The position numbers and the translations under genes were made by a program. A DNA stretch of 64,000 bases from an uncultured Chlorobiota bacterium (GTDB lineage: Bacteria; Bacteroidota; Bacteroidia; Bacteroidales; JAADGE01), in assembly GCA_947311445.1 (NCBI GenBank), contig CAMZKV010000004.1, forward strand, positions 5,364 through 69,363. Reading direction: 5' to 3'. The notes beneath the pieces are model-generated. The model made no database searches and was not told the DNA's origin. It saw only the letters and a list, made by a program, of their open reading frames with translations. Shown one piece after another: positions 22,276 through 53,874 of this stretch (within the stretch, counting starts at the first letter, position 1; the number at the start of each line of letters is the position of its first letter).

Positions 22276-25200
22276 TTATTGAATAATTATTTTTGAAACT
22301 AAATTAATATTGTCATAACTAATTTGCAAGAAGTAAACCCCTTTATTTTTATTAAAATCAAGAGTATGCTGTTTAATTTCTTCAAAATATTTATCGTAGA
22401 TTAATTTTCCTGTTATATCAATAATTGAAATCTTTACGTTTTTAGTTTCTTTTGGGAAACTAATATTGAAAATTCCATTATTTGGGTTTGGATATACTTT
22501 GATTCCTGTTTCCTCTATATTTTCAATATTAGAAGCAACAAATAAAACAGCAATATCACTAGTTTCAATGCCACAATCTCCAGATACAACAACATCGTAA
22601 CTCCCTCCATCTGAGGTCTGAACATTATTAAGTGTTAAAGTATTTAAATTTGTTCCTACATTTGAACCATCTTTTCTCCATTGATAAGATAAATTATCTC
22701 CTGTTGCAACAACAGTAAAATTAACATTTTCACCAATGGCAGCATTTATATTATCTGGTTGGTCTGTAATTACAGTTGTGTTTCCTAAGGTTATGATGAC
22801 TTCATCTGAATTAACACAAACACCATTTGTAATTGTCCAAGAAAGTGTTAGAGGAGATGTTGTTATATTTATATCAGAATTGTATAAATTAACATCTGAA
22901 ATGTTTGCATTTCCGGAAACAACTGCCCAAACCCCTGTTCCGGGAGAAGGGTTATTACCTGAAAGTGTATAATTTGCATCACATGTATTTTCATCATTTC
23001 CTGCATTTGCTATTATTAAGTTATCAACACTAATTTCAATTGTTTCGCAAGAAGAGTTTGCACATGAATTTTCCCATCGTCCATAATAAGTAGTTGTTGT
23101 TAATGGGCTAACAGACAAATAATTACCGTTCCCAACAAGAGTTCCTCCGCAAGATGTTTCGTACCATCCAAAAGTATTTCCTGAACCTCCCGTGTATGAT
23201 AAAATTGTAGATGTTCCTGAACAAACTGTTGTTTCGGTAGCCGAAACTAAACTTGGTGGGACTGAATTTGATAAATCATTAGTTAATGTTGCAGAAGCAG
23301 ATAAACTTGACATAAAACCGTTTTTTTCAACTTGTCCTTTATAAATTCCATCGTTTAATCCTGTAAAATCATGAGAATTTGCATCTCCTGTCCAATCTAA
23401 AATAGGATTTCCTGCATCGTCTCTTAAATAAAATGTTTGGGTGCCACTTCTTGAAGAATTAACAGTTATAGTCCCTGTTCCTGTACCGCAGCCAGGCAAT
23501 GCACTAATAGTGGCAACAGGTGTAATTGAAGTTCCGGTTAAGACAAAATTATCAATATTCCATCCACAGAAAAACCAGCTTCCATCTGTTACTCCAATTG
23601 AATATCTTATTTGGACACTTGCCTGTTCATCGGCATATGCAGAGATGTTAATTGTTTGGTTGCTCCATGCGTTTTCCTCAATGGCACTTGCATTTGTCCA
23701 AAGTTCTGTCCAAGATGATCCGTCAGTAGATATGTCGATATATGCATGATCATAACTTGGTTGTTCTATTCCCAGCCATCTTTGAAAATTTAATTCAATA
23801 TTCTCAAAGTTTGAACAATCAATTACGGGACTTATTGCGTATTCTGCATGACTTGCTAAATTTGCTTCATAATCGCCAGAATTTGAACCTTGTCCGGTTA
23901 AATCAAGTCCTAAAACATTTGTTCCCTCAAAAGCTGTTGTAGGATCAGCGTTTCCATGTGCCCCTCCTAGTCCTTGCGGTGCATCTCTTTCCCATTCTCC
24001 GTTCATAGTCCAACCTTTATCTGTTTCAAAATCATCATTAAAAATTGTTTCTACAACATTAAATACTTTAGTTAATGTATCATTTGAAGTGTTTAAATCT
24101 GTGCCTCCGTTTGGTGATGTTACCAGTGCTTCAAAAGTATGACTTCCGAATGTTATTCCTATACTTGGAAAAACGATTTCAACTGTTTCTCCTGATACGA
24201 TATTTCCTGTCCAATTATTTTCAACATATTGTTGAGCATCAATTTTATATTTTGCAGTAAAAGAAGTTATATCATTAATTCCTTTATTTTTTATTGTAAT
24301 TGTTGGGGTAATGTTTTCTTCTGCAAAATATGTATCGGCAGGTGTGCTTATTTGAAGAAGTTGTGCGTCTAATGTTACAGTAGGAACATTAGGGTCGAAG
24401 CCATTAAGAACAGAAACACCTGAATTTGTAGGATCTAACCAATCTTTAAGTTGATTTGTTGGACTACCACCTCTGTCCCACGACATTGAAAATTTTCCGT
24501 AAAAATCTTGTGTTAAACTTGAGCAAGAAGCCCATCCTCCGTGAAGTTGTCCGATTATTCTGTGATTTTCATCGTATAAAGGAGAGCCAGAAGAACCTGG
24601 TTCTGTTGTAGTACCTCTGTTCCATTGCGTAATTTCCCAGTGAGAATCGGCTAAATAAGGAGAGGGGTCGTAATCTGATGAAACAGCAGGATTGTCATCA
24701 AAAGAAATCTTTTTAATATCTCCACTTGGATGATGTATTCCTACTTGAGCTGTCGGTTGATTGTCGGAATTATCCCAACCGGAATAATATACTTCATATT
24801 CGGCGGGAGGAGTATTGTTTAAAAGTACTAGGCAGAAATCAGAATCAGAATTTCTAGCAACTAGAGTAGAACCGGAAATTGCATCATGAGAAGGTGAAGT
24901 TCCTGGGTTTGCACAGGTTTCACTTTCCCAGTTAAACCAAAAAACCCAATCTGAAGGGTCGTTATAACAGTGATTTGCAGTTAAAAAATATGGAGTACCG
25001 TCTTCTGATGTGTTATTTATTAAAGCTCCTGAGCACCAATCGCTTCCACCACTTATTATTCTTGCAGATGCTCTTATATCATCAACCCATGGAGCTCCGT
25101 CAGGACAAGCAACATTCATATTACATGAACCAGAACCTCCAAAACCTTTGTTAAATTCGTTTGATCCTCTGTAACCATGAGTAACTCGTGTAATAATTGG

Positions 25201-25725
25201 GCTATATGGACTGTTAATTTCTTTTGGCTCATAGTATTCGATGATAATTTTATCTCCGCTTACTAATGTTGTGGCAAAAACTCCATTTTCTTGATTATTT
25301 TGATAATTAAAACCTCCAATTATATCAGATTTGTCTTCATTATAAACATAGAGCAAAGCTCCTTGAGATAAATTATAATTTTCAAATCTTAAATTTATAG
25401 TTAGAGCATTTGTAGATTCAATACCTAATCTCCAAATTTTGCTCCCGTCAGATAAGATATCATAGCTTCCCTTTTCTTTTATATTAATATGAACAAAAAT
25501 GTTTTGTCCAAATCTAAAAGGTTTATTTTTTCTTAAATCATTTACTTTGTCTTCTTCTTTTAGTTTTTGAATATTTACAAATGGCATTTTTTCAAACTCA
25601 ATTTTTGTTTTTATGTCTTTTTCTAAAAAACTTTTAGGCAAACCACCTACATTAATTTGAGCGTAGTTTGTAGTTATAGAAATGAGCATAGTGGCAATAA
25701 GACTTAAATAATAAATTTTTTTCAT
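22276..25725 (-). CDS. Secreted trypsin-fold serine endopeptidase with Ig-like domains and T9SS C-terminal sorting domain
   Basis: 1149 aa; signal peptide; catalytic triad contexts LTANHC, SDFCLVLL, EPGSSGSPL; Ig-like block NLSYQWRKDGSNVG ... DGGSYDVVVSGDCG; C-terminal KVYPNPNNGIFNISF ... GVYFLQISYD ... SKIIIQ typical of the Por secretion tail. Confidence 0.8.
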   Translation of the reverse strand: MKKIYYLSLIATMLISITTNYAQINVGGLPKSFLEKDIKTKIEFEKMPFVNIQKLKEEDKVNDLRKNKPFRFGQNIFVHINIKEKGSYDILSDGSKIWRLGIESTNALTINLRFENYNLSQGALLYVYNEDKSDIIGGFNYQNNQENGVFATTLVSGDKIIIEYYEPKEINSPYSPIITRVTHGYRGSNEFNKGFGGSGSCNMNVACPDGAPWVDDIRASARIISGGSDWCSGALINNTSEDGTPYFLTANHCYNDPSDWVFWFNWESETCANPGTSPSHDAISGSTLVARNSDSDFCLVLLNNTPPAEYEVYYSGWDNSDNQPTAQVGIHHPSGDIKKISFDDNPAVSSDYDPSPYLADSHWEITQWNRGTTTEPGSSGSPLYDENHRIIGQLHGGWASCSSLTQDFYGKFSMSWDRGGSPTNQLKDWLDPTNSGVSVLNGFDPNVPTVTLDAQLLQISTPADTYFAEENITPTITIKNKGINDITSFTAKYKIDAQQYVENNWTGNIVSGETVEIVFPSIGITFGSHTFEALVTSPNGGTDLNTSNDTLTKVFNVVETIFNDDFETDKGWTMNGEWERDAPQGLGGAHGNADPTTAFEGTNVLGLDLTGQGSNSGDYEANLASHAEYAISPVIDCSNFENIELNFQRWLGIEQPSYDHAYIDISTDGSSWTELWTNASAIEENAWSNQTINISAYADEQASVQIRYSIGVTDGSWFFCGWNIDNFVLTGTSITPVATISALPGCGTGTGTITVNSSRSGTQTFYLRDDAGNPILDWTGDANSHDFTGLNDGIYKGQVEKNGFMSSLSASATLTNDLSNSVPPSLVSATETTVCSGTSTILSYTGGSGNTFGWYETSCGGTLVGNGNYLSVSPLTTTTYYGRWENSCANSSCETIEISVDNLIIANAGNDENTCDANYTLSGNNPSPGTGVWAVVSGNANISDVNLYNSDINITTSPLTLSWTITNGVCVNSDEVIITLGNTTVITDQPDNINAAIGENVNFTVVATGDNLSYQWRKDGSNVGTNLNTLTLNNVQTSDGGSYDVVVSGDCGIETSDIAVLFVASNIENIEETGIKVYPNPNNGIFNISFPKETKNVKISIIDITGKLIYDKYFEEIKQHTLDFNKNKGVYFLQISYDNINLVSKIIIQ

Positions 25726-31106: not shown

Positions 31107-32279
31107 TTATATTACTAACTGCAGAATAAAATAAGAAGTTTTAGTGTTTATGTTTTTAAAAAGGTAATAGATATTATTATTATTTTTTAACTTCATATCT
31201 ATTAAATTTAAATCGGGTTTTTTAGAAACATCAAATGCGTAAAATTGCTCAATATAATTTCGTATTTTTGCTAATCCGTCAGGATTTGTTTTGTTAATGA
31301 TTCTTATTTTACTGCCTAATATTATTGCTTTATCATTTAAAATAAGATTTCCCGCAGTTAAATATATTTTTTTACCTTTTTTACTTAATAAAAACACGCC
31401 TCTACTATTTCTCTTTCTGGGAGTATTCCCATTTTGGTCTTCAAATTTATCTGCGAAATCAATAATATTCCTTAGTGCTTTTACTGTGAAATCAAAAACT
31501 TTCTTTTTTATTTCATTACCTCCAATTGAATGAGATTCAATTATAGGCAAAAGGTGTGTGAGATTTTCAAAGGCAAAAGAACCGTTAAAATTAAGAAGAA
31601 TGTTATCTTCATTTAGTAAATCATGAAATTTTGATATCCTTTTTAGAGAAAATAATTTATCATTTACTACCTCTTTGAAAGTGTCAGAAAAAACTAATCT
31701 TATTTGAAAATAAAAATAAGAATATGAATCATTTATTTTTTTAAAATAAAAATCAAATCTGCCTTTTGTTCTTCTTGCCATTCCAATTATGCCAAGACCT
31801 CCTCCTCCTTTTTCAGAAATAATACCGTCAGTCATTTTTTTATGGTAAGCTTTCTTTAAACTTTCATTATTATGATTCTTTATTTCTGATAAGTATTGTT
31901 CAAGTTCTAATATATTTTTATTTTCAATTACATTTCCGGTACTAATAAATATAGAGTCTTTTGTTTTTTGTATAACAAAAAGGCTTTTATTGTCAACATC
32001 TTCATCTTCAGATTTATCTTGATGTCTTATTACATTTTGAAGAGTTTCAATTAAAATAGAAGATATCTTCTTCCTGCTTCCCGAAACATCTTTATCATTG
32101 ACAAATTTTGCATCTGCTAGTCCTAATATACTTTCTGTTATTTTTTCAGAAAAATTGCCTCTATAGACATATTCAACGTATTCTTCATCAACTGATTCAG
32201 TCATTTTATATGCTAAATCAATTTGAGAAACATTTGTTTCCTTTTCTATAAAAAAATTATTTGAAATAAAATCTTTCAT
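31107..32279 (-). CDS. SiaB-like GHKL serine/threonine kinase fused to a degenerate second SiaB-like domain
   Basis: 390 aa. The N-terminal half has N-box-like ETLQNVIRH and ATP-lid EKGGGGLGIIGMARR (anti-sigma/SiaB kinase type). The C-terminal half aligns block for block but has KALRNIIDF and KKPDLNLIDMKLK instead. Confidence 0.6.
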   Translation of the reverse strand: MKDFISNNFFIEKETNVSQIDLAYKMTESVDEEYVEYVYRGNFSEKITESILGLADAKFVNDKDVSGSRKKISSILIETLQNVIRHQDKSEDEDVDNKSLFVIQKTKDSIFISTGNVIENKNILELEQYLSEIKNHNNESLKKAYHKKMTDGIISEKGGGGLGIIGMARRTKGRFDFYFKKINDSYSYFYFQIRLVFSDTFKEVVNDKLFSLKRISKFHDLLNEDNILLNFNGSFAFENLTHLLPIIESHSIGGNEIKKKVFDFTVKALRNIIDFADKFEDQNGNTPRKRNSRGVFLLSKKGKKIYLTAGNLILNDKAIILGSKIRIINKTNPDGLAKIRNYIEQFYAFDVSKKPDLNLIDMKLKNNNNIYYLFKNINTKTSYFILQLVI

Positions 32280-32468: not shown

Positions 32469-33572
32469 TTATTCTGCATTTATTATTTTACCAAGAAGAT
32501 ATTTTTTAAACATTGATTTTTTTCCATTTTCGTTATAAAAAACCCAAATTTCATTTTTTAAATCACCTTTATAATTTCCTTCTGAGGAAACGTGTCCGTT
32601 TTTATAGTAAAATTTCCATTTTCCTTCAGCTAATCCTTTTTTAAATTTTCCAATTTGTTTTAAATTTCCATTTGTAAAATAAACTTTCCAAATTCCTTCA
32701 AATTTTCCATTCAGGTAGTTTCCTTCAGAAAATATTTTTTTATTAGGGTAATATGATTTCCAATGTCCAATTCTCTTATCTTCATTATATTGCCCCTCTT
32801 CTGCAAGTATTCCATTTGCATGATATACTTTGTATTCTCCATTGATATGCCCATTTTTATAATGATAAACTCCGCTTAAAGTTTTGTTTTTATAAAACGC
32901 ATAAAACTTGCTATTTAGTTTTCCGTTTTCATAAAAGCATTTCCTTTGTAAGTTGTTATTTTTATAATAAACATATAGAGTATCAAAATATAAATCACCT
33001 TTTTTTTTTCCTTTATAATTTAACTCTCCTGTATCATAATAGGTTTCAAAATAACCTTCAATTCTATTATTCTTATATGTAAGCAATTCTTCTTTTAATC
33101 CGTCTTCTTTAAATTTTTCAACAGTTCCGTGTAAAATTCCATTTTTGTATTGCCCTATAATTTTAATTTTTCCATTCAAATAATAAGTTGTAAGTTTTCC
33201 TTCGGGTAAGTTATTTTTATACTTGCCCTCTTGTTCTAATTCTCCGGTTTTATAATAGTGATAAAATTTACCATTTTTATTGTTTTCGTGAAAATGAATT
33301 TTTGATTTTATTTCTCCTGTTTTGTAATATAAAATCCAGTCTCCTTCCAAATTATTATTAAAGAAAATACCTTCTTGTAATTTTTTGCCATTTTTAGAAA
33401 AGAATATATATTTTCCATTCTTTATTGTGTCATTTGCTTTTATTTCAGCAAAATATTTTTCTTTTACACGATTATTTGTGTCAGAATAATAACTCACAAA
33501 ACTTTTTTGGGCATAAGTTAAAATTGGCAAAAAGAATATATAAAAAGTAAGGAAAACAATAGGCTTATTCAT
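32469..33572 (-). CDS. Secreted MORN-variant repeat protein (YwqK-like)
   Basis: 367 aa; signal peptide; about 14 consecutive ~23-aa repeats of the G-x-W/Y-x-x-Y-Y-x-N-G-x-L/I type. Confidence 0.75.
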   Translation of the reverse strand: MNKPIVFLTFYIFFLPILTYAQKSFVSYYSDTNNRVKEKYFAEIKANDTIKNGKYIFFSKNGKKLQEGIFFNNNLEGDWILYYKTGEIKSKIHFHENNKNGKFYHYYKTGELEQEGKYKNNLPEGKLTTYYLNGKIKIIGQYKNGILHGTVEKFKEDGLKEELLTYKNNRIEGYFETYYDTGELNYKGKKKGDLYFDTLYVYYKNNNLQRKCFYENGKLNSKFYAFYKNKTLSGVYHYKNGHINGEYKVYHANGILAEEGQYNEDKRIGHWKSYYPNKKIFSEGNYLNGKFEGIWKVYFTNGNLKQIGKFKKGLAEGKWKFYYKNGHVSSEGNYKGDLKNEIWVFYNENGKKSMFKKYLLGKIINAE

Positions 33573-33597: not shown

Positions 33598-34431
33598 TTA
33601 TTCTTTTTCTTTTTTCTTGTCAATAACTAAGAGTGTTTCTTTCAATCTTACTCCTTTAATTGTGGTAGCTTTGCCATAATCTAAAAGGGCAACTAATTCA
33701 TATTTTCCGGGCATCATTGTCTTAGGCAAAGTAAACTGAACATTTCTTTTGCAATTTGGGTATGAATCTAAATAAATAGGGTCAAACCTTATTTCTTCGG
33801 CAGTAGTCATGTCAGATGCAATAAAAGTAACTTTACATTTTTCTATAAGTTGTCCTTTGTTTTCAATTACAGCTGAAAAAATACGCCCAATTGAGTCTGT
33901 ACTGTTATTTTCTTTCAAATACTTTATTGTTAAGTCCGATTTTGCATCTGAAACTGGTTTTCTAAATACATGGACAGCAATTCTTCCACTTAAATTAATA
34001 CCTGCACCAATAGCCGATTTGTCCACATCAAAACTAACTTGTTCTTTAACTGTTTGAATGTACATTATTGCCCATCTTGAAGTGTTGTCTTCGGCAGGAG
34101 ATTCTAGAGTAACTTTTAAATTAATTTGTTCATTTGGATTTATCTCAAAAAAAGTTTTTTCAATTGTTATCCAGTCTGCACAAGAATTTTTAGAAGAATT
34201 TCTTTTCATAATCTGTTTATTGCCGTTCACATCAACCGTGAAATCCGCAAAAGTAACAGAAAAAGATGTTTTAAAATTTGAGTGGTTTTTTACAGACAAT
34301 AATTTTGTTTGAGACTCTCCCTCATCAACGGTAAATTCCATTATAACAGGAGAAACCTCAAAGTCTTGAGAGTATATATTTTTATTAATATTAAAAAAAA
34401 TTAGTATAAATAATCCAATGTATTTAAGCAT
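33598..34431 (-). CDS. Secreted two-block all-beta (Ig-like) protein, possible periplasmic chaperone-like component
   Basis: The ORF track starts at TTG 34476. I prefer the in-frame ATG at 34431 (MLKYIGLFILIFFNINKNIYSQ signal peptide), because 34474-34481 is a TAnnTTTG box. The mature ~255 aa shows alternating beta patterns in two blocks (FEVSPVIMEFTVDEGESQTKLLSVKNHS ... ; ... KCKVTFIASDM ... PGKYELVALLDYG). The functional call is inference only. Confidence 0.45.
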   Translation of the reverse strand: MLKYIGLFILIFFNINKNIYSQDFEVSPVIMEFTVDEGESQTKLLSVKNHSNFKTSFSVTFADFTVDVNGNKQIMKRNSSKNSCADWITIEKTFFEINPNEQINLKVTLESPAEDNTSRWAIMYIQTVKEQVSFDVDKSAIGAGINLSGRIAVHVFRKPVSDAKSDLTIKYLKENNSTDSIGRIFSAVIENKGQLIEKCKVTFIASDMTTAEEIRFDPIYLDSYPNCKRNVQFTLPKTMMPGKYELVALLDYGKATTIKGVRLKETLLVIDKKKEKE

Positions 34432-34473
34432 TTTTTTGGTGTTTTTTATTAAATTTCTTTTTATTAAAATTTT

Positions 34474-34481
34474 CAAATTTA
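34474..34481 (-). promoter_or_regulatory. -7 box for Ig-like/MORN operon
   Basis: TAAATTTG on the minus strand, 42 nt before ATG 34431. Confidence 0.45.
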
Positions 34482-34632
34482 AAAAAATATATTAATTTTC
34501 CCAACTAAATAAACCAAAAAACCATATATTAATATTAAAACGGCACCATAGAAACACTATATTTTTCCTATTATAATTGAGAAAGCGGTATCGTTTAGAA
34601 TTAATATTTATAGTTTTAATTAAACTGTAAAA

Positions 34633-36537
34633 ATGAAAACAACTAAATTTTATACTGTTTTTTTGATAGTAATTTTAATACTCTCTTTTAATATTCAGTC
34701 CTTTTCTCAATTTTCGGATAAAGATAAAGAAAAATTAAATAAATATTTGGCTTCGGCAAAAGAATATCAAAAAAATGACGAAAATAAAAAAGCTGCAAAC
34801 CAATATTACAAAGCCGGTAGATTTTGTTTAACTAAAGGGGAAAACAAGAAAGCAATACCTTATTTTAAAGAATCATATAAAATTTATGGGCAAATTAAAG
34901 ATTTTCAAAATGTAATGAAAATATACAGTAATTTAGGGTTATTATATGCAAATTTAGACCAAAATGACAAGGCATTATTATATTTTCAAAAAAGTTTAAA
35001 AATAAGAAAAAATTTAGGAGATAAATCTCAGATTTCATCTGGTTTATTAGATTATGCCTATGTTTTGGCAATTAAGGATGATTATAAAAATGCAATAAAA
35101 AATACAATTAGAGCTCTCGATATTGCAAATGAAATTCAAAATCCAAAACTTCTTCTTATTAGCTATAGAATGCTTGCAGAAAATTACCAGAAAATTGGCA
35201 ATGAACAAAAAGCTGCCGAATATCTTGATAAGTTTGCTTCGTACAGACAACACTTTAAGGAAACAAAAACAAAAGAGTTGGTAACAGAAGAAAGGATCAA
35301 ATCAATTGCAGAACTCAGCATTAAAGATGCTGAAGCAAAAGCAAAACAGCTCGAATATGAATTAATGAAAAAAAACAAAGAGTTTATTGAAGATACATTA
35401 AATAGGGCTATTGAAATTCAACGAGCAATGATAAAAGCTAAAAACGATTCAATTGCACGTGTTGAAGCTATTGTAGAGCAAGAAAAAATGAAAAACGAAT
35501 TAGTGAAGGCTGAACTTAACAGAGATAAAGCCCAACAAAGATTAACATTGATAATATTTTCCAGTATAGTAGCTTTTGTTCTATTTATTGCTCTTGTATT
35601 GCTTTTTAACATAAAAAGAAGAAAGAAACATAATAAAATGTTATCAATAACTAACCAAAAAATTGCAGAGCAGAATAAAAAAATTGAAATAAAAAATGAA
35701 GAGCTTACTAGTGCTTTCATGAAAATTGAAAGTCAAAATTATGATATAAATTCAAGTATAAATTATGCTGTTAATATCCAAAGAGCACTACTCCCTCCGC
35801 AAAGGAATTTAAATAAATACATAGACAATTCATTTATTTTTTTTAAACCAAGAGATAAAGTTAGTGGTGATTTTTATTGGTTCAAAAATATTGCAATTGA
35901 GAATGGAGATGAAATAATTGAAAAAACTTTTGTTTCAACAATTGATTGTACGGGGCATGGAATTCCGGGTGCATTTTTATCAATGATGAGTTATAACTTG
36001 CTTGAAAATATAATTGAACAAAAGAAAATTTATGAACCCGCAAAAATTCTTGATGAATTACATGAAGGGGTAAGAAAATCTTTAAGGCAAGACACATCTG
36101 AAAATAGAGATGGGATGGATATGTCTTTGTGTTGTTATGACAAAAAAAGTAACTTATTGGAATTTGCAGGAGCAAAGAACCCACTAATATATATTAAAGA
36201 TAATAAATTAGATAGAATAAAAGGAGATATAAAACCAATTGGCGGGGTTATTTTTGATAAAACTGAAACAAAAAGATTTACTAACTATTCTATTGAAATA
36301 GATGAGCCAACAACGGTATATATATACTCAGATGGATTTGCTGACCAAACAGGAGAAGAAACAGGAAGAAAGTTAATGTCTAAGTTTTTTAGGAATCTAT
36401 TATTTGAAATTCATAAAAAACCCATGGAAAATCAAAGAGATATTTTGAAACTTTTTTTACAAAAATGGCAAGGAAGTATTGAACAAACTGACGATATACT
36501 AGTAATTGGGTTTAAACTATTTCCAAATAATATTTGA
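34633..36537 (+). CDS. Periplasmic TPR sensor / single TM / cytoplasmic PP2C-SpoIIE serine phosphatase
   Basis: 634 aa; signal peptide; TPR-like repeats (residues ~40-200); coiled coil; TM LTLIIFSSIVAFVLFIALVLLF; PP2C block IDCTGHGIPGAFLSMMSY ... YSDGFADQTG ... DDILVIGFKL. Confidence 0.8.
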   Translation: MKTTKFYTVFLIVILILSFNIQSFSQFSDKDKEKLNKYLASAKEYQKNDENKKAANQYYKAGRFCLTKGENKKAIPYFKESYKIYGQIKDFQNVMKIYSNLGLLYANLDQNDKALLYFQKSLKIRKNLGDKSQISSGLLDYAYVLAIKDDYKNAIKNTIRALDIANEIQNPKLLLISYRMLAENYQKIGNEQKAAEYLDKFASYRQHFKETKTKELVTEERIKSIAELSIKDAEAKAKQLEYELMKKNKEFIEDTLNRAIEIQRAMIKAKNDSIARVEAIVEQEKMKNELVKAELNRDKAQQRLTLIIFSSIVAFVLFIALVLLFNIKRRKKHNKMLSITNQKIAEQNKKIEIKNEELTSAFMKIESQNYDINSSINYAVNIQRALLPPQRNLNKYIDNSFIFFKPRDKVSGDFYWFKNIAIENGDEIIEKTFVSTIDCTGHGIPGAFLSMMSYNLLENIIEQKKIYEPAKILDELHEGVRKSLRQDTSENRDGMDMSLCCYDKKSNLLEFAGAKNPLIYIKDNKLDRIKGDIKPIGGVIFDKTETKRFTNYSIEIDEPTTVYIYSDGFADQTGEETGRKLMSKFFRNLLFEIHKKPMENQRDILKLFLQKWQGSIEQTDDILVIGFKLFPNNI

Positions 36538-36606
36538 TATTTCAAAATAAACTAATACATTTACACATTAAAACTTAAATTTTTAAACCATTTAAATTCA
36601 AATAAC

Positions 36607-37200
36607 ATGAAAAAATTTACAATTTCAATTTTAGCAATTATCCTTTCAATAGGAAGTATGCTTTCACAACCAGTATCTGATCAAGGAATTATTCCTGTGG
36701 GGATTACTTTAAATTCAATTTTAAGATTAAATGTAACCGGAGGAGGAAATCTTGAGTATGTTATTAACACTATAGATCAATATACAAATGGTGTTGGACA
36801 ACCAAATGCACTTTATCAAACACATTTTACAGTTGCTTCATCCGTTGATTTTGATGTAACTTTAATGGCAGATGCAACAGATTTTTTTGGAGTTGATGAT
36901 GCTACGCATAATATTCCTTTAAATAATTTAGGTTATGAAGTAACTGAACAAGGTACAGGAACTCATGGTACAAACTGGGATTTACTAGCAGGAGTTCAAC
37001 CTCTTACAAATAGTGCAGCTACAATTATTGCAGGTAATTATTTGGGAGCAGGGGCAGGAGACATTAATCAAAATCTTTTCACTCTTGAATGGAGACTTGG
37101 AACAGGAGAAGGTTCTATGAATGGTTCGTCTTTGTTAGCACAAAGTATTACATCTGATAGATATGTTGTAAATGTTATTCTAGAACTAAGTCAGCATTAA
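36607..37200 (+). CDS. Small secreted all-beta protein A (paralogue of 37252..37773)
   Basis: 197 aa; signal peptide MKKFTISILAIILSIGSMLSQ; no Cys; Gly/Thr/Asn-rich beta pattern; 69 nt after the PP2C gene with no hairpin between. Confidence 0.6.
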   Translation: MKKFTISILAIILSIGSMLSQPVSDQGIIPVGITLNSILRLNVTGGGNLEYVINTIDQYTNGVGQPNALYQTHFTVASSVDFDVTLMADATDFFGVDDATHNIPLNNLGYEVTEQGTGTHGTNWDLLAGVQPLTNSAATIIAGNYLGAGAGDINQNLFTLEWRLGTGEGSMNGSSLLAQSITSDRYVVNVILELSQH

Positions 37201-37251
37201 CAATTTAAAATTAGAAAATTTGTTTTATTTCATAGTGATTTATTGTTCTTG

Positions 37252-37773
37252 ATGAAGTATATAATATTTTTATTTCTGGTTTGTGGTACATTAAGCTTAT
37301 CGGGACAAGTTACTTCAAGGTTAACAATACAGTCTGGCAGTAATATCAATTTTAATTTTCAATTATTAGATCATTATAATAATGGTGTTTCATATAATAA
37401 TTGGACGCATTTGACTGTTTTTTTTGAAGACTTAGGGGATCCCTTACGCGAGTGGAAATTAAGTGTAGAAGCTACTACTCCAGTAATACAAGGAGATGCC
37501 GGAAACAGTTTACCGCTTAGTACTATTGAATTTTCCGTATCAGGAGACGATGCAGCAGCAACATACTTTAATGATGTTTCTCATGCTGTTTTATCTCCTG
37601 TTTCAACTAATTTGGTTGAAGATGGGCAACAAACAACTACTCCTGGTGTTTTAACTAATTTGTTTATTTCATATCATTGCGGGAAAAGCGTTTATGTTGC
37701 TAATAATTCGTTAATAGGAAAAACCCCAGATTATTATTATGCTGAAATTTTATATACTTTAGAACCGGAATAG
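37252..37773 (+). CDS. Small secreted all-beta protein B (paralogue of 36607..37200)
   Basis: The ORF track starts at TTG 37243; ATG 37252 gives MKYIIFLFLVCGTLSLSGQ. Shares ordered motifs with protein A (see findings). Confidence 0.55.
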   Translation: MKYIIFLFLVCGTLSLSGQVTSRLTIQSGSNINFNFQLLDHYNNGVSYNNWTHLTVFFEDLGDPLREWKLSVEATTPVIQGDAGNSLPLSTIEFSVSGDDAAATYFNDVSHAVLSPVSTNLVEDGQQTTTPGVLTNLFISYHCGKSVYVANNSLIGKTPDYYYAEILYTLEPE

Positions 37774-37817
37774 TTTTTATAAAGAGCTTTTCTTTTCAAT
37801 ATTCATAATCTCAATTA

Positions 37818-40800
37818 ATGACACCAAAAGTCAAAATTTTATTGATTTTTATATTTATTTTGTTATTAAATTCTGTTTCTTCTCAAACAGTTAGTAACGG
37901 AGGAGATATTGATATGAGATTTTTAAAAGATAAAATTGAAATTGAATCAGGAGAGTCTATTTTTAATATCTTATTGTTAAATAATAAATCTAATCGTGAG
38001 ATTAGTTTTAATATTAAAATAAACACTCCAAAAGGTTGGTTAATAATTGGTTCTTCATACGAACAAATATCTCTTCCTCCAAATGGAAGTTTGTCGTTTC
38101 CTGTAAGAGTTAGTGTTTCAAAAAATGCAAATGGTGGAGTTGGATACGCAATAGTTGCAGTTCTTACTGACAATAATAAATCAATATACGATTCCGAATA
38201 TTGTTTTGTCAAAATTCCGGTTAAATCTGTAATAAATGTTAAAACTAATAAAAAATCAAGATATTTTAACCACAATACTTTAAAATCCACATTTTTATTG
38301 GAAGTTGAAAATATAGGAAATATTGACGAAATTACTAATGTAAAAATTACGCCAGATAAAAGTATCAAAATTTTAAATGGTACTGATAATATTCTTGTAG
38401 AACAAAGACTTGTTAAAACAGGGGAAAATAAAACTTTCAAATACGAAGTTCAACTTAATAAAGATATAGATTATAAGAAATATCGTGTACACAAAGTAAA
38501 TCTCGAAGTTAGTCTTCATGACTCTGTAATCTCAAAAACAATTTGGTTTAAGTATTTAGATTGGAAATATAAAAATATTTTCTCTGAGCTTAATTATCCT
38601 TTAAATATAGAATTTTCTGCATATGACATTTTTGGAAATAGTACCCCTATATATATTGGGAAAATTTTTGGGAATATTCTTTTTAAGAGAAAGAAAAATG
38701 TTGTATATTCATTTGAAAACTATAATCAAGACCCTTCTACCAATAACCTTTGGATTAATAGTAGAATGAAAATCGATTTTCATACACCAAAAACAAATAT
38801 ATTTCTTGGCGATTATACAGGAAACTTTGAACATAGTATGTACGGAAGAGGAGTATTTATATCTCAATCTATTGGGGAAAATATTAAAATTAAAGGAGTA
38901 GCTACCCGAAGATTACTTCAAAAATCAGAAAATTATGGACTTTCATATTCTCATAGTTTTCCAAGTCTTTTTACTTTTGAACTAGGAGGAGTTTATTCTC
39001 AATTACCGGCGTATAAAACTACCGCAAATTTAGGGTATGGTTTAATTAAAACTAGAATTTTAAAACAAAATTTAATGCTTCTTATTGGAAGTAGCCAAAG
39101 CACAAACAATCAATTAATAAAAAGAAAATCTTCCGGATGGGGATATAGATTAAATTTTGCTGGCAATGTAAAATCCATAAAATTCAGTCTTAGAAGCCAT
39201 TTTGGAACTTCAAATTATTGGGGGTATTCAAAAGGTCGTCAATACACAGAAGCAAACATAAGCCTACCAATTTCTGAAAATAAACATTTTAGAATTCAAT
39301 ACTACAAACAAAAATACCAACCTACATATATTTCAGATAGTGTATTGCATGATGACAAGTTTACTAGTTACCAACAATTAAGACCCCAAATGATATACTG
39401 GGTTAAAAAAAATATAAGCATATATTTAGCTCCAATTTTTGAAGAGCAAACAACAAACACTTATTCAACAAATCCAGATGAAGGATATTTTGCTACTTTT
39501 TCAGGAAAAGCATATCTCGGTGTTAGAGTTTTTAACAAATTTTCAGATAATTCTTTTTCTTTATATGCTAAGTATGGATTTACTAATGTTTACAATTATC
39601 CTTTAGTTTTAAATACTATTTCATACGAAGGAAGAACAGCAGCAGAAACATTCAATGTTTCTGAGTTTGGAGCTAGTTTTATGAAAAAAAACTTTGGAGT
39701 TTATTTAAAATATAATATAGGACCATATAATCTTTCTCAGCAATTCTCGTATTTTTATAGCCATATAGACTCAAAATCTTTAAGTATAATACCGTATTAT
39801 GAAAGAGATTTAATAGATAATAAAGTAAGGTTAATTTTAAGAGGTTCATATATAAATAATCTATCATCAAAAAATAGCAGGATTAATATTAATACCGGAA
39901 TAAAATGGAATATTGGCAAAGGTTGGTCATTCAGATTTACAAATACATCATCAGTACAAAGAGTATCTAATAGTTCCGGATCTGGCTCATACAGTTCTAC
40001 TTATTTTGAAGCAGGAATAAGAAAGTCTTTTAATATTCCTCAACCAAGATTAAAATACCATGATTTAAGAATTGTTTATTATAAAGACTATAACGGTAAC
40101 AGAATACATGATCCAAATGAACCTGGTGTTACTTCTGTTCTTACTGACATTCAAAGAGCAAACCCAATTGAAGACAATAAAGACCCAAATTACAATGGAG
40201 AATTTCTTCCAAATGAACTATTGTCAAATCAAGAAGGACGTGTAGAATACAATAACATAGTTGAGGGAAACTATCTTATAAATTATACACCTCAAATTTC
40301 ACTCGATAATACATACGAAAGTGAAAGCACAACATATAAATTTACAGCATCAAAAGATACTGTACTACAAATTCCTTTTATGGAAAGAAATAAACTTTTT
40401 GGAAGGGTAAATCTAAATAGAAATAAAAATTCTGCATTAGGAGATATTCCCTTAAATAACATAAAAATTATTGTAGAAGGAAATGATAGAACATATTCTG
40501 CTCTAACTGATAAAGAAGGCTATTTTGAGCTTTTTGTTCCAGTTTCAGATTATTATAAAGTGAAGATTAACAACATATTTCATGAACACTTCTCAATAAG
40601 ACAAGCATATTATATTGTTAAATTTAACGGTTACAAAAACTTTGAAGTAAGCTTTGACTTTGATGAAAAAGAAAGAAAAATTTCTTTTGACGAAAGCGAA
40701 TTTCTTATTGACGATGATGAAGTTGCAGATGATGACTTTTCATTTGACGACATTAAAATAATTAAACAAACAAACCTAAGAGGAATTACAAAAGATGCAA

Positions 40801-41393
40801 ATTCATTAATGCCTTTACATGCAATTGTTTCAATTTTTAATTCTAAGACAAACGAACTAATTTCTGAAACTGCTTCAAGTAAAAGAACAGGTGTTTATTT
40901 TACCTCGTTTTTTGCCGGAGACAATTATTATATAAAAGCTAGTGCAAAAGGATATTGGACATATAAAGCAGATTTAAACATCCAACAAGTTACAACATTT
41001 GAAAATCTTAATCATGACATTCTATTAAATAAAATATTTTTAGATGAAGAAATTAAAACAGATAATCTAAATTTTAAGTCTGAAAGTGCAACATTATCTC
41101 CTCTTGCCAAAGCAGAACTAGATAATATTGTAAATATATTATATTTAAACCCTTCAATACATATTGAAGTTTTAGGACACGCAGATAATGTTGAAGCTCT
41201 AATTCTTAATCCAACAACAGGCTTATCTGAGGCAAGGGCAACTGCTGTAGCATCATATCTAATAAAAAGAGGTATTAGAGAACATAGAATTAAAACAAAA
41301 GGTTTGAGTAATTTGTTTCCTAAAACAACTGACGACTCAGAAGATGGACGAGCAAGAAATAGAATAGCAGAAATTATTGTAACTGCATATTAA
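37818..41393 (+). CDS. 1191-aa outer-membrane mosaic protein: Ig-like N-domains, barrel-like core, prealbumin-like domains, OmpA C-terminal domain
   Basis: Signal peptide. Two N-terminal domains with the pattern ISFNIKINTPKGWLIIG ... LPPNGSLSFPVRVSV. About 500 aa of amphipathic beta strands ending YSSTYFEAGIRKSF. SdrD-B/CarboxypepD_reg-like blocks (DYNGNRIHDPNEPGV; TDKEGYFELFVP). OmpA_C block NLNFKSESATLSP ... IEVLGHADN ... SEARATAVASYL ... GRARNRIAEIIV. Confidence 0.75.
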   Translation: MTPKVKILLIFIFILLLNSVSSQTVSNGGDIDMRFLKDKIEIESGESIFNILLLNNKSNREISFNIKINTPKGWLIIGSSYEQISLPPNGSLSFPVRVSVSKNANGGVGYAIVAVLTDNNKSIYDSEYCFVKIPVKSVINVKTNKKSRYFNHNTLKSTFLLEVENIGNIDEITNVKITPDKSIKILNGTDNILVEQRLVKTGENKTFKYEVQLNKDIDYKKYRVHKVNLEVSLHDSVISKTIWFKYLDWKYKNIFSELNYPLNIEFSAYDIFGNSTPIYIGKIFGNILFKRKKNVVYSFENYNQDPSTNNLWINSRMKIDFHTPKTNIFLGDYTGNFEHSMYGRGVFISQSIGENIKIKGVATRRLLQKSENYGLSYSHSFPSLFTFELGGVYSQLPAYKTTANLGYGLIKTRILKQNLMLLIGSSQSTNNQLIKRKSSGWGYRLNFAGNVKSIKFSLRSHFGTSNYWGYSKGRQYTEANISLPISENKHFRIQYYKQKYQPTYISDSVLHDDKFTSYQQLRPQMIYWVKKNISIYLAPIFEEQTTNTYSTNPDEGYFATFSGKAYLGVRVFNKFSDNSFSLYAKYGFTNVYNYPLVLNTISYEGRTAAETFNVSEFGASFMKKNFGVYLKYNIGPYNLSQQFSYFYSHIDSKSLSIIPYYERDLIDNKVRLILRGSYINNLSSKNSRININTGIKWNIGKGWSFRFTNTSSVQRVSNSSGSGSYSSTYFEAGIRKSFNIPQPRLKYHDLRIVYYKDYNGNRIHDPNEPGVTSVLTDIQRANPIEDNKDPNYNGEFLPNELLSNQEGRVEYNNIVEGNYLINYTPQISLDNTYESESTTYKFTASKDTVLQIPFMERNKLFGRVNLNRNKNSALGDIPLNNIKIIVEGNDRTYSALTDKEGYFELFVPVSDYYKVKINNIFHEHFSIRQAYYIVKFNGYKNFEVSFDFDEKERKISFDESEFLIDDDEVADDDFSFDDIKIIKQTNLRGITKDANSLMPLHAIVSIFNSKTNELISETASSKRTGVYFTSFFAGDNYYIKASAKGYWTYKADLNIQQVTTFENLNHDILLNKIFLDEEIKTDNLNFKSESATLSPLAKAELDNIVNILYLNPSIHIEVLGHADNVEALILNPTTGLSEARATAVASYLIKRGIREHRIKTKGLSNLFPKTTDDSEDGRARNRIAEIIVTAY

Positions 41394-44059
41394 ATTCTAT
41401 ACACAAAAGAAAATAATACAAACCTTCTATGAATGTAATAGTCTGATTTGTAATAGAATATGTCGCTGTTATTTATTTTTGTAAGCAATTCTGTATTGAG
41501 AATATTCTCGCCTGAAATTGAAAACTCCCAACTTTTATTTTTTGTTATGTAATATAAACCAACATTCAAAAATGAGTAAAAACTTTTGCCTTTATTTTGA
41601 ATGTTTTTGTTAATATTATAATTGTAATCTGCCGTAAAAATAAATTGTTTTAAAAACGGAATTTCAATATTTGCAAAATAATCTGAATTTATATAATCAC
41701 TTTTTTCATTACTTTGTCTGAAATTTGTAAAGTTTTGATTACTCCCAATTTCAAAATTAGTTGCATTTTTAAAGAAAGTTGAAACACTTAATTTATATTT
41801 GTGAGAAAACAGCTTATTTCTTGCAAACTCATCATTAATTTTATTTTCATAAGTTGAATATGTAAGTATATTATTAAATGAAATTTTGAACTTCTTTATG
41901 CGTTTTTCATAATTAAAATTACTTGAAACTATTTCTTTTGCTTTGCTAAATTGCTCATATTCCGAAATGTAAATATTTTCATTAAATTCAATTGAAATTT
42001 CAGTAGGTTTTATTTGCCTTGAATAATTTATAAACAAACGAGTATTTGAAAATGAAAAATTATTAAAAAACATATAGTTTAATGAAAAGCTATGATACAA
42101 ACTAGATTTTAATTTGCCATTTCCAAAATTAAGGCTGTTGTATGATGAGAAAGTGTATGCTTCTGATAATTTTGAAATCTCAGTAAATTTAGGAGACGCA
42201 TTATAAGTAAAACTTATATCTTTTGTTTTCATAAAACTATATTTCAGAAAAATATCGGGAGATATTATTGTTTGAATATCAGAAAAATTGTTTGCTTTTT
42301 GTTTGTTTGTTGAAATAAAATGATGAAGTTTAATACCTCCCGATGCTGTTAATTTTTTCTTTAAAGTTTTGTATTTAATACCAGAATAATAATATTGTAA
42401 TTCCTTTGTAAGTATATTTGAAAATTTAGATTTTTCAGGTATCAAAGTATCTTTTTTACTTGTAAATTGCTTTGTGTTAAGTATTAATGTGTTTGTTGCA
42501 TAATCACTTCCAAAATTTATTCTTATATTATTTTGCTTGTTTAACAAATATATAAATTCTGTTTTTCCACTAAACTCATTTCCCGAAATATCTTTAATCT
42601 GATAAAAATGTAAGTTGTTTGTTTCTGCAAATTCGTTAAATTTAAAATTGTTATTTTCTGAATAAAACTCTGTGTTTAAATTATTATCAAAATACTTATG
42701 CCTTAAATTTATTGAAAAAATACCATTATCTCCAACAGAATAAAATAAATTAAAATTCTGCTTTAAATCATTTATATTGCTATTTTTTAGTGTATTAGTT
42801 TTTCCTAAATTACTTGAATAAATATTATCTGAAAAATTAGCATCACTATATTTTCCATATAAATTATAATCTAAAAAAACTTTATAGTTAGGCTGATAAT
42901 TAAGTCTTAAATTGTATAAAGAAAATAAACTGTTAATATTTGAAATTGAATTTAAAGTTTCTGAATTTAAGTTCGTAAAATACTCTTTATTGCTGTTTTC
43001 TTGCATTAAAATATCATCAACATTTAAAATAGCAAAACCACTGACTGACAACTTTTTACTAAAATTATGATTTATGTTTAAAGCTCCAAATTTTGGATTT
43101 ATTTTCTTTGCTTTGTTGTTAGGTAAAAACATAAAACCGAGTTCATCCGAGTTTATTGAAAAAGTTCCGTTGCTACTGCTAAGTAAGTTTGAAATACCTC
43201 CTGAAAAGCGTATATAATCCTGAAAAGTAAAGGACTGCTTACCTGTATTATTTATATTCCCTATGAAGTTGACAGAAGTTTTAGGGCTGTAATAAAATAA
43301 TTTAGGATTTAGCAGATATTTATTCTCATATCCTGCACCAGCTTCAATATCGCCAAACCAAAAACGTTTTTTTCCTTTCTTTAATTTTATGTTTATTACG
43401 GGATTATCATCGCTTGCATTTACCCCTTTCATCATACCAATTTCGCTGTAATTGTTCAAAACCTGGATTTTATCAATAACATTTGCAGGAATATTTTGTG
43501 TTGCAAGTTTAGTATCTCCACTAAAAAAATCTTTATTATCAACCATTATTTTACCAACCTTCTTGCCTTTAACTGTAACTTCTCCCGATTTTGAAACTTC
43601 CAAGCCCGGTAATTTCTTTAAAACATCTTCAAGTTTTTTTTCATTGCCTGTTGAAAAAGAGTTTGCATCATAAGTTATCGTATCACCGTTTACTTTTATT
43701 GGTTGGGTGTATGTTATTTCAACCTTTTCAATCGAGTATTCTTTTGAAACAAGAACAATATTTTTCTTAATAATTTTTTTATTTCCAGTTAATATTGGAA
43801 TTTTAACTGTTTCATATCCAAGGTAACTTACACGCAATTCATAAAACTTATTTTTGCCTAATTTCAATTCATAATACCCTGAATTATTGGCAGTTGCATA
43901 AGTTACAATTTTATTATTTATAGTATCAAAAGCAATAATATTTGCTTCAATATATTTGTTGCTTTTATCTTTTACAGTACCTTTTACAACTGTTTGAGAA
44001 AGTATTGTTTCTGCAAAAAGAGAAATAAGCAATAATGTAAAAAGATATTTAACTTTCAT
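41390..44059 (-). CDS. Outer-membrane beta-barrel family protein (CarboxypepD_reg + plug-like + barrel)
   Basis: The ORF track starts at TTG 44098; ATG 44059 gives the signal peptide MKVKYLFTLLLISLFAETILSQ. N-terminal VKGTVKDKSNKYIEANI ... SGYYELKL; plug-like LEDVLKKLPGLEVSKSGEVTVKGKKV; long Asn/Tyr/Phe-rich barrel ending FSFVYRI. Confidence 0.75.
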   Translation of the reverse strand: MKVKYLFTLLLISLFAETILSQTVVKGTVKDKSNKYIEANIIAFDTINNKIVTYATANNSGYYELKLGKNKFYELRVSYLGYETVKIPILTGNKKIIKKNIVLVSKEYSIEKVEITYTQPIKVNGDTITYDANSFSTGNEKKLEDVLKKLPGLEVSKSGEVTVKGKKVGKIMVDNKDFFSGDTKLATQNIPANVIDKIQVLNNYSEIGMMKGVNASDDNPVINIKLKKGKKRFWFGDIEAGAGYENKYLLNPKLFYYSPKTSVNFIGNINNTGKQSFTFQDYIRFSGGISNLLSSSNGTFSINSDELGFMFLPNNKAKKINPKFGALNINHNFSKKLSVSGFAILNVDDILMQENSNKEYFTNLNSETLNSISNINSLFSLYNLRLNYQPNYKVFLDYNLYGKYSDANFSDNIYSSNLGKTNTLKNSNINDLKQNFNLFYSVGDNGIFSINLRHKYFDNNLNTEFYSENNNFKFNEFAETNNLHFYQIKDISGNEFSGKTEFIYLLNKQNNIRINFGSDYATNTLILNTKQFTSKKDTLIPEKSKFSNILTKELQYYYSGIKYKTLKKKLTASGGIKLHHFISTNKQKANNFSDIQTIISPDIFLKYSFMKTKDISFTYNASPKFTEISKLSEAYTFSSYNSLNFGNGKLKSSLYHSFSLNYMFFNNFSFSNTRLFINYSRQIKPTEISIEFNENIYISEYEQFSKAKEIVSSNFNYEKRIKKFKISFNNILTYSTYENKINDEFARNKLFSHKYKLSVSTFFKNATNFEIGSNQNFTNFRQSNEKSDYINSDYFANIEIPFLKQFIFTADYNYNINKNIQNKGKSFYSFLNVGLYYITKNKSWEFSISGENILNTELLTKINNSDIFYYKSDYYIHRRFVLFSFVYRI

Positions 44060-44167
44060 GTTTTTAGTTTTATAATAGAAAAAAGTAATTAAGCTCAAGC
44101 ATATAGATTAAATAATCACAGATTTTATCAGCGAAAATCTGTTAAATCCGTATTATCCCTTTTCTAT

Positions 44168-53493: not shown

Positions 53494-53874
53494 TTAAGGA
53501 TTTAAAGGAATTAAAGTAAAAGGAATATTAATTAGTTCTGTTAAATCTTCTCCCATTTCCATAATGTCTTCATCGTCTTCATCGTAATACCAATTTATTT
53601 TAATATCTTTACCATTATCTAAAAGAGAATTTAGTTTAAGAAGAATTTGGAAAATCTTTTTATGGGAAGAGCTGTTAAGTACAGTAAAATAAAATTCACA
53701 AATTAATTCTTTGTCAAGTTTAGGGATTTCACTATCAATCCAATCCAAAATAGGGTTTAAAATTTCAATTACATCCTCAGAAAAAGAAGGTCCTTTTATT
53801 TGAAAAATATTTTCTTCAATGTTTAAATTGACTAGTGGGGTCTTTTTGGTTTTTTTTATGTAAATATTTTCCAT
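53494..53874 (-). CDS. DUF1987 domain protein (SiaC-like partner-switch component)
   Basis: 126 aa; typical DUF1987 layout: KTPLVNLNIEENIFQIKGPSFSED, ILDWI, EFYFTVLNSSSHKKIFQIL, INWYYDEDDEDIMEMGED. Confidence 0.7.
   Translation of the reverse strand: MENIYIKKTKKTPLVNLNIEENIFQIKGPSFSEDVIEILNPILDWIDSEIPKLDKELICEFYFTVLNSSSHKKIFQILLKLNSLLDNGKDIKINWYYDEDDEDIMEMGEDLTELINIPFTLIPLNP

Follow-up and report, generated by a model that had tools for sequence, protein, structure and literature searches.

We analysed a 64,000-nucleotide (nt) stretch of contig CAMZKV010000004.1 (assembly GCA_947311445.1, labelled as an uncultured Chlorobiota bacterium), hereafter the window, in which two strings of genes diverge from a common AT-rich intergenic region. 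With a probability of about two in three, this locus encodes a complete chaperone-usher-like pathway of Bacteroidales-type Bacteroidota, which assembles a pilus of the TLP-1 type by donor-strand exchange (DSE). The first-pass annotation, made from the sequence alone, had recognised here the parts list of a chaperone-usher-type fibre system, and this idea gained support from the homology of a small secreted protein to the protomers of TLP-1 fibrils, from the WxLIP- and chaperone-like fold of a periplasmic protein, from the structural matches of an outer-membrane (OM) barrel protein to FimD and PapC, and from conserved synteny. The annotation had also called the system undescribed, which holds only in part: we found no description of the cluster in the literature on WxL, usher-like or PapD-like proteins in Bacteroidota, but the structure of the fibre has already been solved as TLP-1a/b, so that only the genetics and the machinery are new.

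Relationship of the small secreted proteins to TLP-1 fibrils

The right arm of the locus encodes two small secreted proteins, small1 (197 residues, positions 36607..37200, + strand) and small2 (173 residues, 37252..37773, +). Small1, the candidate major fibre subunit, starts with a signal peptide, has a glutamine at position +1 (Gln21) and carries an N-terminal extension of residues 21-41 (nt 36667-36729), the predicted donor strand. Small2 is a paralog without this extension and a candidate tip or initiator. The paralogy of the two proteins had been proposed before; by BLASTP alone it was visible only at an E-value of 1e-4, whereas hhalign paired the proteins over their full length with 99.5% probability (E 2.6e-23), small2 being aligned from after the extension. 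A word-indexed search returned 218 homologs of small1, and an exhaustive search returned 320 clusters at 50% identity, each protein having about 200 residues. Neither Pfam nor NCBIfam matched any domain in small1 or small2.

To relate these proteins to known structures, we searched the PDB sequences, at E-values of up to 10, with a profile made from an alignment of diverse small1 relatives. The profile matched exactly two sequences, 9IKK ('TLP-2', i.e. TLP-1b; E 2.4e-4) and 9IKJ ('TLP-1', i.e. TLP-1a; E 7.8e-4), each from an entry with 16 chains. The same two entries were the top PDB matches of P0259, the family relative nearest to TLP, which is located in the same PP2C-small1-small2-barrel cassette, with about 38% identity over 60 residues that include the donor strand. 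In the reciprocal search, an N-terminal TLP fragment compared with 3072 local sequences matched small1-family proteins only (best E 8.6e-6). The relationship is distant: small1 of the window taken alone gave a weak phmmer match to TLP-1 (E 0.29), an alignment of close small1 homologs gave only a spurious sulfotransferase match in the PDB, and an alignment of small2 gave no PDB match.

TLP-1a and TLP-1b (PDB 9IKJ and 9IKK; maps EMD-60656 and EMD-60657) were solved at 3.2-3.5 Å by electron cryo-microscopy of pond water (CryoSeek, PNAS 2024, PMC11494351). They are 8-nm helical tubules whose protomers polymerise by DSE, the N-terminal strand of one protomer completing the Ig-like fold of its neighbour (PMC11494351). 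The donor strand comes from protomer n+4 (PMC11494351), and the fibril therefore consists of four parallel DSE chains. The authors reported that no experimental fold matched and that mass spectrometry and metagenomics failed to identify the protein; species, genes and machinery were left unidentified, and 'uncharacterized bacterial pili' from benthic bacteria were suggested (PMC11494351). Later CryoSeek papers added nothing on the origin of TLP-1. The locus studied here is a candidate for producer, gene and assembly machinery alike, and may thus solve an orphan structure by offering a candidate gene, organism and assembly route. This origin is directly testable in two cultured organisms that carry the cluster, Salinivirga cyanobacteriivorans and Perlabentimonas gracilis.

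Residues 24-41 of small1 (IIPVGITLNSILRL) aligned to TLP residues 4-20, which form the donor strand. The extension was the best-conserved part of the small1 family, with a mean top-residue frequency of 0.82, compared with 0.45-0.68 elsewhere, and 17-18 residues separated the cleavage-site Gln from a conserved Arg in 83/83 sequences. In the small2 family this distance was only 1-7 residues (in the 42 of 77 sequences with both residues aligned), so small2 lacks a donor strand. Like small1, the TLP-1 protomer begins with a signal peptide and continues with an N-terminal beta1 strand and an Ig-like head; small1 of the window is a distant member, with 177 mature residues as opposed to about 236 in TLP-1. 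The sequence comparisons thus place small1 in the same protein family as the TLP-1a/b protomers and show that it keeps the strand that completes the Ig-like fold of the neighbouring protomer in the solved fibrils. Had the small proteins been unrelated to pilins, as the first-pass annotation allowed, this homology to DSE protomers, donor strand included, would not be expected. By analogy, we infer that small2 would accept a strand but not donate one, and that it would thus occupy the distal tip. Compared with 14 pilins of E. coli K-12, the small proteins gave hhalign probabilities of only 5-12% over short stretches, and no fimbrial-subunit family of Pfam matched them.

Export signals and type V pili

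The exported proteins of the cluster carry a signal of the signal peptidase I (SPase-I) type, followed by an invariant or near-invariant Gln at +1. None of them has a lipobox Cys, and no conserved Cys was seen at the signal when the family alignments were inspected. The C-terminal domain of the type IX secretion system (T9SS; Por_Secre_tail in Pfam) was not matched in any protein of the cluster, and T9SS cargo was rejected because this sorting domain is missing.

If our reading is correct, the Bacteroidota, known for type V pili (FimA/Mfa1) that do without a chaperone, also have a chaperone-usher-like pathway. The pilins of type V are lipoproteins that mature through proteolysis, and they need no chaperone or usher. 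The predicted pilus would have in common with them the phylum and the formation of surface fibres by strand exchange, and a sensor protein of the cluster (see below) has a TPR region that resembles FimS, the kinase controlling the fimbriae of P. gingivalis. In contrast to type V pilins, the signals in the window have no lipobox Cys and are followed by the invariant Gln of a SPase-I site; type V pili were rejected because of the missing lipobox.

A WxLIP-like candidate chaperone

The first gene of the left arm (33598..34431, - strand) encodes a 277-residue periplasmic protein with two Ig-like domains, a WxLIP/PapD-like candidate chaperone. Its AlphaFold2 (AF2) model, made with 30 homologs, had a mean confidence (pLDDT) of 84 and showed two Ig-like beta-sandwich domains, in line with the two all-beta blocks read earlier from the sequence. 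The model has no C-terminal transmembrane (TM) helix, so the protein should be soluble in the periplasm. The top PDB matches of the model in Foldseek were the E. faecium WxLIP structures 9I25_C and 9I1Y (E 7e-12 to 7e-11, TM-score about 0.5), and next came CsuC, CfaA, Caf1M, EcpB, YadV and FimC (E 3e-9 to 1e-6, target-normalised TM-scores 0.50-0.62). The first-pass annotation had asked whether this protein would turn out to have nothing of a chaperone; the matches of the model, with WxLIP first and then CsuC, CfaA, Caf1M, EcpB and FimC, suggest that it is chaperone-like.

At the sequence level, Pfam gave only sub-threshold matches to Ig-type domains (Cep192_D6, ASH, WxLIP_PGBD, BACON). WxLIP_PGBD (DUF916) was matched below threshold by 28/30 family members (best E 6e-5), and the family also matched ASH, Cep192 and MSP, all of which have the Ig fold of PapD-like proteins. 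The family profile reached EfmWxLIP1 among the PDB sequences at E 0.054, and the window sequence alone matched none of them. Against seven plasmid-borne Gram-positive WxLIPs, hhalign gave a probability of 50% (E 1.6e-4, 206 columns); against 8 chaperones of E. coli K-12 it gave 0.4%, and the PapD family of Pfam was not matched. DUF3324 (HBD) was likewise not matched. The nearest family of the 277-residue protein is the Gram-positive WxLIP.

In domain 1 of the model, the longest hairpin (strands 119-131 and 144-158) borders the sole loop of low confidence. This hairpin ends in a conserved strand of alternating hydrophobic residues, SGRIAVxVYR (residues about 148-157), in which R150 and I151 are invariant. 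The strand is a candidate for the one that would be donated to subunits, and recalls the F1-G1 hairpin of PapD-like chaperones.

The next gene of the left arm (32469..33572, -) encodes a secreted protein of 367 residues with MORN_2 repeats (Pfam E 3e-32). About 13 repeats were counted by eye, close to the roughly 14 claimed initially. Among the related loci described below, this gene adjoined the chaperone-like gene in 53/53 loci having both, and the median gap of -4 nt suggests translational coupling in these relatives.

The affinity of the candidate chaperone to WxLIP raises an alternative explanation, in which the cluster is a diderm version of the WxL/WxLIP (Csc) complex. The small proteins would then be WxL-like domains in static binding to WxLIP-like modules, of which one is free and the other is fused to an OM anchor, and the complex would be adhesive or bridge the envelope, with no extruded polymer. 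WxLIP is indeed the top structural match of the 277-residue protein and the sole family with a sequence-level signal to it. The published clusters (PMC9772566, PMC10599100; PDB 9I25, 9I1Y) combine, like ours, one WxLIP-type gene with genes for two small secreted beta proteins, and one WxLIP with two WxL proteins is the commonest Gram-positive layout. The small proteins also carry two W/F-x-L motifs, about 100-110 residues apart, with an order and spacing resembling those of small WxL proteins, where the spacing is about 106 residues (PMC9772566, PMC10599100), and the small1 homolog of Salinivirga is labelled 'WxL domain-containing protein' in UniRef.

The sequences themselves did not bear out this resemblance. 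The WxL family of Pfam matched 0/89 members of the small-protein families (48 + 41), and a hidden Markov model (HMM) of 8 plasmid-borne Gram-positive small WxL proteins found no member of these families. An apparent hhalign match of 49% came largely from the signal peptides and dropped to about 1% once these were trimmed; with signal peptides removed, the comparisons with the eight Gram-positive proteins gave 1-10%, the alignment being colinear. WxL membership of the small proteins was therefore rejected as not established, WxL being retained as a lead only, and it is mainly the WxLIP-like protein that connects the locus with WxL clusters. Moreover, small1 is detectably related to a solved DSE polymer and the 277-residue protein lacks the C-terminal TM helix of WxLIP. 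The window also differs from the Gram-positive clusters in its diderm host and its OM barrel protein, and in the absence of a DUF3324 match, an LPXTG partner and a large WxL protein. We thus consider a static WxL/WxLIP complex unlikely, with the proviso that it partly overlaps the pilus reading, since the binding of WxL to WxLIP is itself predicted to involve strand insertion.

The outer-membrane platform

The last gene of the right arm (37818..41393, +) encodes a protein of 1191 residues, which we regard as a usher-like OM platform on the basis of its AF2 model, Foldseek and Pfam. The model, made with 34 sequences, had a pLDDT of 82. It began with a WxLIP-like module (residues 29-250, nt 37902-38567), whose two Ig-like domains spanned residues 31-245. 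About 26 long strands then formed a barrel (residues 262-738, nt 38601-40031). The barrel was followed by a region of beta-sandwich or prealbumin-like domains (residues 747-1070, nt 40056-41027), which an acidic disordered linker interrupts at residues 953-982, and the protein ended in a peptidoglycan-binding OmpA domain (residues 1085-1190, nt 41070-41387). Pfam recognised OmpA at residues 1086-1182 and CarboxypepD_reg at residues 988-1057. Model and Pfam together bear out the domain order that had been read from the sequence, with Ig-like N-domains, a barrel-like core, beta-sandwich domains and an OmpA tail.

The best barrel-containing matches of the model in Foldseek were the ushers FimD and PapC (E 2e-10 to 6e-10, about 850 columns), and LptD (1e-7) and TonB-dependent receptors (about 1e-6) ranked lower. 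The OmpA domain must be periplasmic; given the even number of strands, the N-terminal domains should be periplasmic as well, as they are in ushers. The N-terminal module (residues 29-250) aligned to the family of the 277-residue protein over both domains (hhalign 76.6%, E 2e-5, 184 columns). The two have Foldseek neighbours in common (Cep192 SPD-2 and RbmA) as well as the motifs ES..N.L.[IV]KN.SN and [EV]N.G. The barrel protein thus carries a fused chaperone-like module.

The C-terminal region of this protein bears on another explanation, namely that the cluster is an OmpA-family envelope-integrity module under the control of the PP2C phosphatase, with periplasmic small proteins and no fibre, the likeness to TLP-1 reflecting the common Ig-like fold only. 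The region of CarboxypepD_reg and OmpA resembles the envelope proteins PorE and CHU_0125, and the E-values to TLP are modest. Yet a shared fold would hardly explain that TLP gave the sole PDB matches, reciprocal, specific and including the donor strand, and an anchor could do with a far smaller barrel than one of about 26 strands. This explanation appears very improbable to us.

Conservation of the cluster in related genomes

We compared 84 HMM-annotated loci, of which 80 came from a scan of species-representative genomes and the others from metagenome contigs and from the cultured Salinivirga cyanobacteriivorans, whose locus (L21SP5_00618 and neighbours) was found by an exact-protein look-up. 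The denominators below are the loci with enough sequence for the given feature. The 80 scan loci belong to distinct species, mostly metagenome-assembled genomes (MAGs) of Bacteroidales, Marinilabiliales, Salinivirgaceae and Tenuifilaceae, and include the cultured Perlabentimonas gracilis.

The first-pass annotation had named absence of conserved neighbourhood as an argument against a functional unit. What we found was a nearly invariant order of small1, small2 and barrel: small2 directly followed small1 in 77/78 loci, and in 72/72 loci small2 had the barrel gene downstream of it, at a median distance of 9.5 nt. Since the arrangement recurs in 84 loci, a chance juxtaposition of genes is excluded. 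The chaperone-like gene was found upstream in 50/61 loci (divergent in 49) and anywhere in the locus in 51/61. The TPR-PP2C gene was directly upstream of small1 in 58/68 loci, and two loci (L004 and L064) had the core without PP2C; the linkage of PP2C is thus frequent, not universal.

A small1 protein 97% identical to that of the window was found in locus L007, which puts the window close to a MAG labelled 'uncultured Chlorobi bacterium RB_MAG_00012'. Altogether, the MAGs of L007, L010, L013, L014, L016 and L029 are labelled 'Chlorobi/Chlorobiota', and L022 and L083 are contigs of one MAG labelled 'uncultured Acholeplasma sp.'; all of these carry the cassette. Near the cluster in the window, a protease gene (22276..25725, -) encodes a large T9SS cargo with trypsin-like, CARDB, Ig and Por_Secre_tail domains, and its T9SS domain shows that the organism belongs to the Bacteroidota that possess a T9SS, a system not used by the proteins of the cluster. 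The Acholeplasma and Chlorobi/Chlorobiota labels probably reflect mis-binning or mis-labelling, as they fit poorly with the +1 Gln, the OmpA-type OM protein and the T9SS cargo beside the cluster in the window.

Proposed assembly pathway

In the pathway that we propose, all parts would leave the cytoplasm by Sec, as suggested by their SPase-I signals and +1 Gln. In the periplasm, the 277-residue protein would donate a strand and cap the open cleft of small1 and small2. Small2, unable to donate, would be incorporated first and end up at the distal tip. Small1 subunits would then be added at the barrel protein, the N-terminal strand of each inserting into the previous subunit, and the chain of subunits would pass through the barrel to the outside. 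The base of the fibre may be held by the OmpA domain and the fused chaperone-like module, which may also fasten the platform to peptidoglycan. Production might be adjusted upon an envelope or external signal by the TPR-PP2C sensor together with a SiaB-like kinase and SiaC.

This scheme resembles the chaperone-usher pili (FimC/FimD, PapD/PapC; the archaic Csu and alternative CFA/I systems) in its chaperone-like protein of two Ig domains, in an OM barrel flanked by periplasmic beta-sandwich domains, in subunits with an N-terminal donor strand and in a strand-less paralog like a tip subunit. It differs from them in the barrel protein, which has about 26 strands, no recognisable plug and, in addition, a chaperone-like module at its N-terminus and an OmpA domain, in the MORN protein and PP2C sensor included in the cluster, and in that the related TLP-1 fibre uses an n+4 and not an n+1 donor. 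Classical chaperone-usher membership at the sequence level was rejected, as no similarity to 6 ushers, 8 chaperones and 14 pilins of E. coli K-12 was found by Pfam or hhalign. This agrees with the initial impression that no part of the locus is a canonical usher or pilin.

Several observations weigh against a chaperone-usher-like pathway. The TM-scores of the usher matches were low (0.27-0.42) and alike for BtuB and LptD, so that they do not discriminate between these classes of barrel. Pfam Usher did not match the 1191-residue protein and hhalign to 6 ushers of E. coli K-12 gave a probability of about 0, meaning that it is not an usher at the sequence level. Its barrel has about 26 strands, not 24, and an inserted plug was not evident in the secondary-structure string of the model. 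The DSE fold of small1 and small2 rests on remote homology, over about 65-95 residues, to models built into density. A free chaperone-like gene was not found within 10 kb in 10/61 loci. Finally, with an n+4 donor the fibre has four parallel DSE chains, which are not obviously buildable by a single-file usher; how one barrel might build such a fibre is a mechanical problem.

The n+4 geometry fits lateral self-assembly better than single-file extrusion through an usher. One may therefore imagine that small1 fibres assemble by themselves, free of a chaperone, after export by another route, as in TasA fibres and archaeal cannulae, and that the barrel protein and the Ig-like protein serve only as a surface anchor or envelope tether. 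Chaperone-free polymers held by donor-strand complementation do exist (PMC12518558), and at the sequence level no homology links the barrel protein to ushers. On the other hand, the conserved cassette encodes no other OM translocon, and the small proteins have neither a T9SS C-terminal domain nor a lipobox. The barrel gene followed small2 in every locus that could be scored, in most cases no more than about 10 nt away. In the periplasm, a subunit whose cleft is open also needs protection, and a protein of PapD/WxLIP fold is linked in most loci (51/61). Self-assembly by another export route thus seems to us quite unlikely.

Within the preferred reading of a chaperone-usher-like pathway, we put forward only tentatively the broader view that the locus represents a distinct, ancient branch of donor-strand pili linking WxL/WxLIP clusters to chaperone-usher systems, in which several usher-like barrels, equipped with an integral chaperone-like module and an anchor to peptidoglycan, would together extrude the four DSE chains, and that it is the source and the machinery of the TLP-1 fibrils. 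Gram-positive WxL/WxLIP clusters and Gram-negative chaperone-usher systems may have a common ancestry in strand complementation.

Sensor phosphatase and Sia-type regulators

The first gene of the right arm (34633..36537, +) encodes a sensor phosphatase of 634 residues with a signal peptide, a periplasmic TPR region, a single TM helix and a cytoplasmic PP2C/SpoIIE domain. This architecture had been recognised in the sequence, and Pfam (TPR_12 and SpoIIE) agreed with it, as did a hydrophobic segment at about residues 303-324 that is followed by KRRKK and supports a single TM helix. In NCBIfam, the C-terminus was SiaA-like, with 188 bits compared with an equivalog cutoff of 700, and the TPR region was FimS-like (E 9e-9). 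A second SpoIIE/PP2C phosphatase (27508-28890, +) with a multi-pass membrane N-terminus is 36% identical to the catalytic part of the PP2C of the cluster.

Beyond the left arm, a protein of 390 residues with two DUF6272 modules (31107..32279, -) is a SiaB-family kinase-like protein and a possible accessory regulator. Its family, suspected before, was confirmed (NCBIfam SiaB_fam_kinase, 169 bits compared with a cutoff of 85; Pfam DUF6272, E 1e-45), but the gene adjoins the cluster in no more than a dozen or so of the closest relatives. A SiaC-family phosphoprotein of 125 residues (53500..53874, -), 12 kb from the cluster, was found by tblastn with the SiaC proteins of two related loci (L002 and L006), in which the SiaC gene adjoins the cluster; Pfam SiaC matched it at E 6e-33. 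It is the probable substrate of the pair formed by PP2C and the SiaB-like kinase, and together with this kinase and the two PP2Cs it would make up a partner-switch set of the Sia type. A diguanylate cyclase of the SiaD type was not noted near the cluster, where no search aimed at SiaD was made.

The set recalls SiaABCD of Pseudomonas aeruginosa in its SiaA-like PP2C domain, SiaB-family kinase and SiaC-family protein. It differs in the PP2C of the window, whose sensor is a periplasmic TPR region and whose score falls far short of the equivalog cutoff of SiaA. In one clade (L018, L019 and L023) there was no upstream PP2C, and a TPR-HisKA-HATPase kinase was encoded about 1.6-1.9 kb downstream (e.g. 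L019:16331-18046, -). The TPR domain of this kinase is related to that of the PP2C of the cluster, which suggests that the output domain was swapped on a retained TPR sensor in this clade.

Layout of the locus and neighbouring genes

The two arms diverge from the intergenic region at 34432..34632, which has 18% GC and presumably holds the promoters of both arms. Gaps between genes were 69, 51 and 44 nt in the right arm and 25 nt between the 277-residue protein gene and the MORN gene in the left arm. The open reading frames, divergent gene strings and gap lengths reported earlier were all reproduced in our map, and a pattern scan of the DNA agreed that no terminator-like hairpins lie in the gaps of the right arm. 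A Bacteroidetes-type -7 motif (TAAATTTG) was found on the minus strand at 34481, some 50 nt upstream of the ATG of the 277-residue protein; it is weak evidence for a promoter, because the same motif occurs 2.4 times per kb across the window. A scan for sigma-70 promoters gave 84 sites compared with 71 expected and is uninformative in this Bacteroidota sequence of 27% GC.

On the right side, the barrel gene is convergent with a gene for an OM protein with CarboxypepD_reg and OMP_b-brl_3 domains (41390-44098, -), and their 3ʹ ends overlap by 4 nt. A GLPGLI-family protein gene comes after it (44168-44959, -), and this pair is probably unrelated to the cluster. On the left side, a full-length DUF4301 protein (E 9e-217) is encoded at 29573-31078 (+), between the genes of the second PP2C and the SiaB-like kinase.

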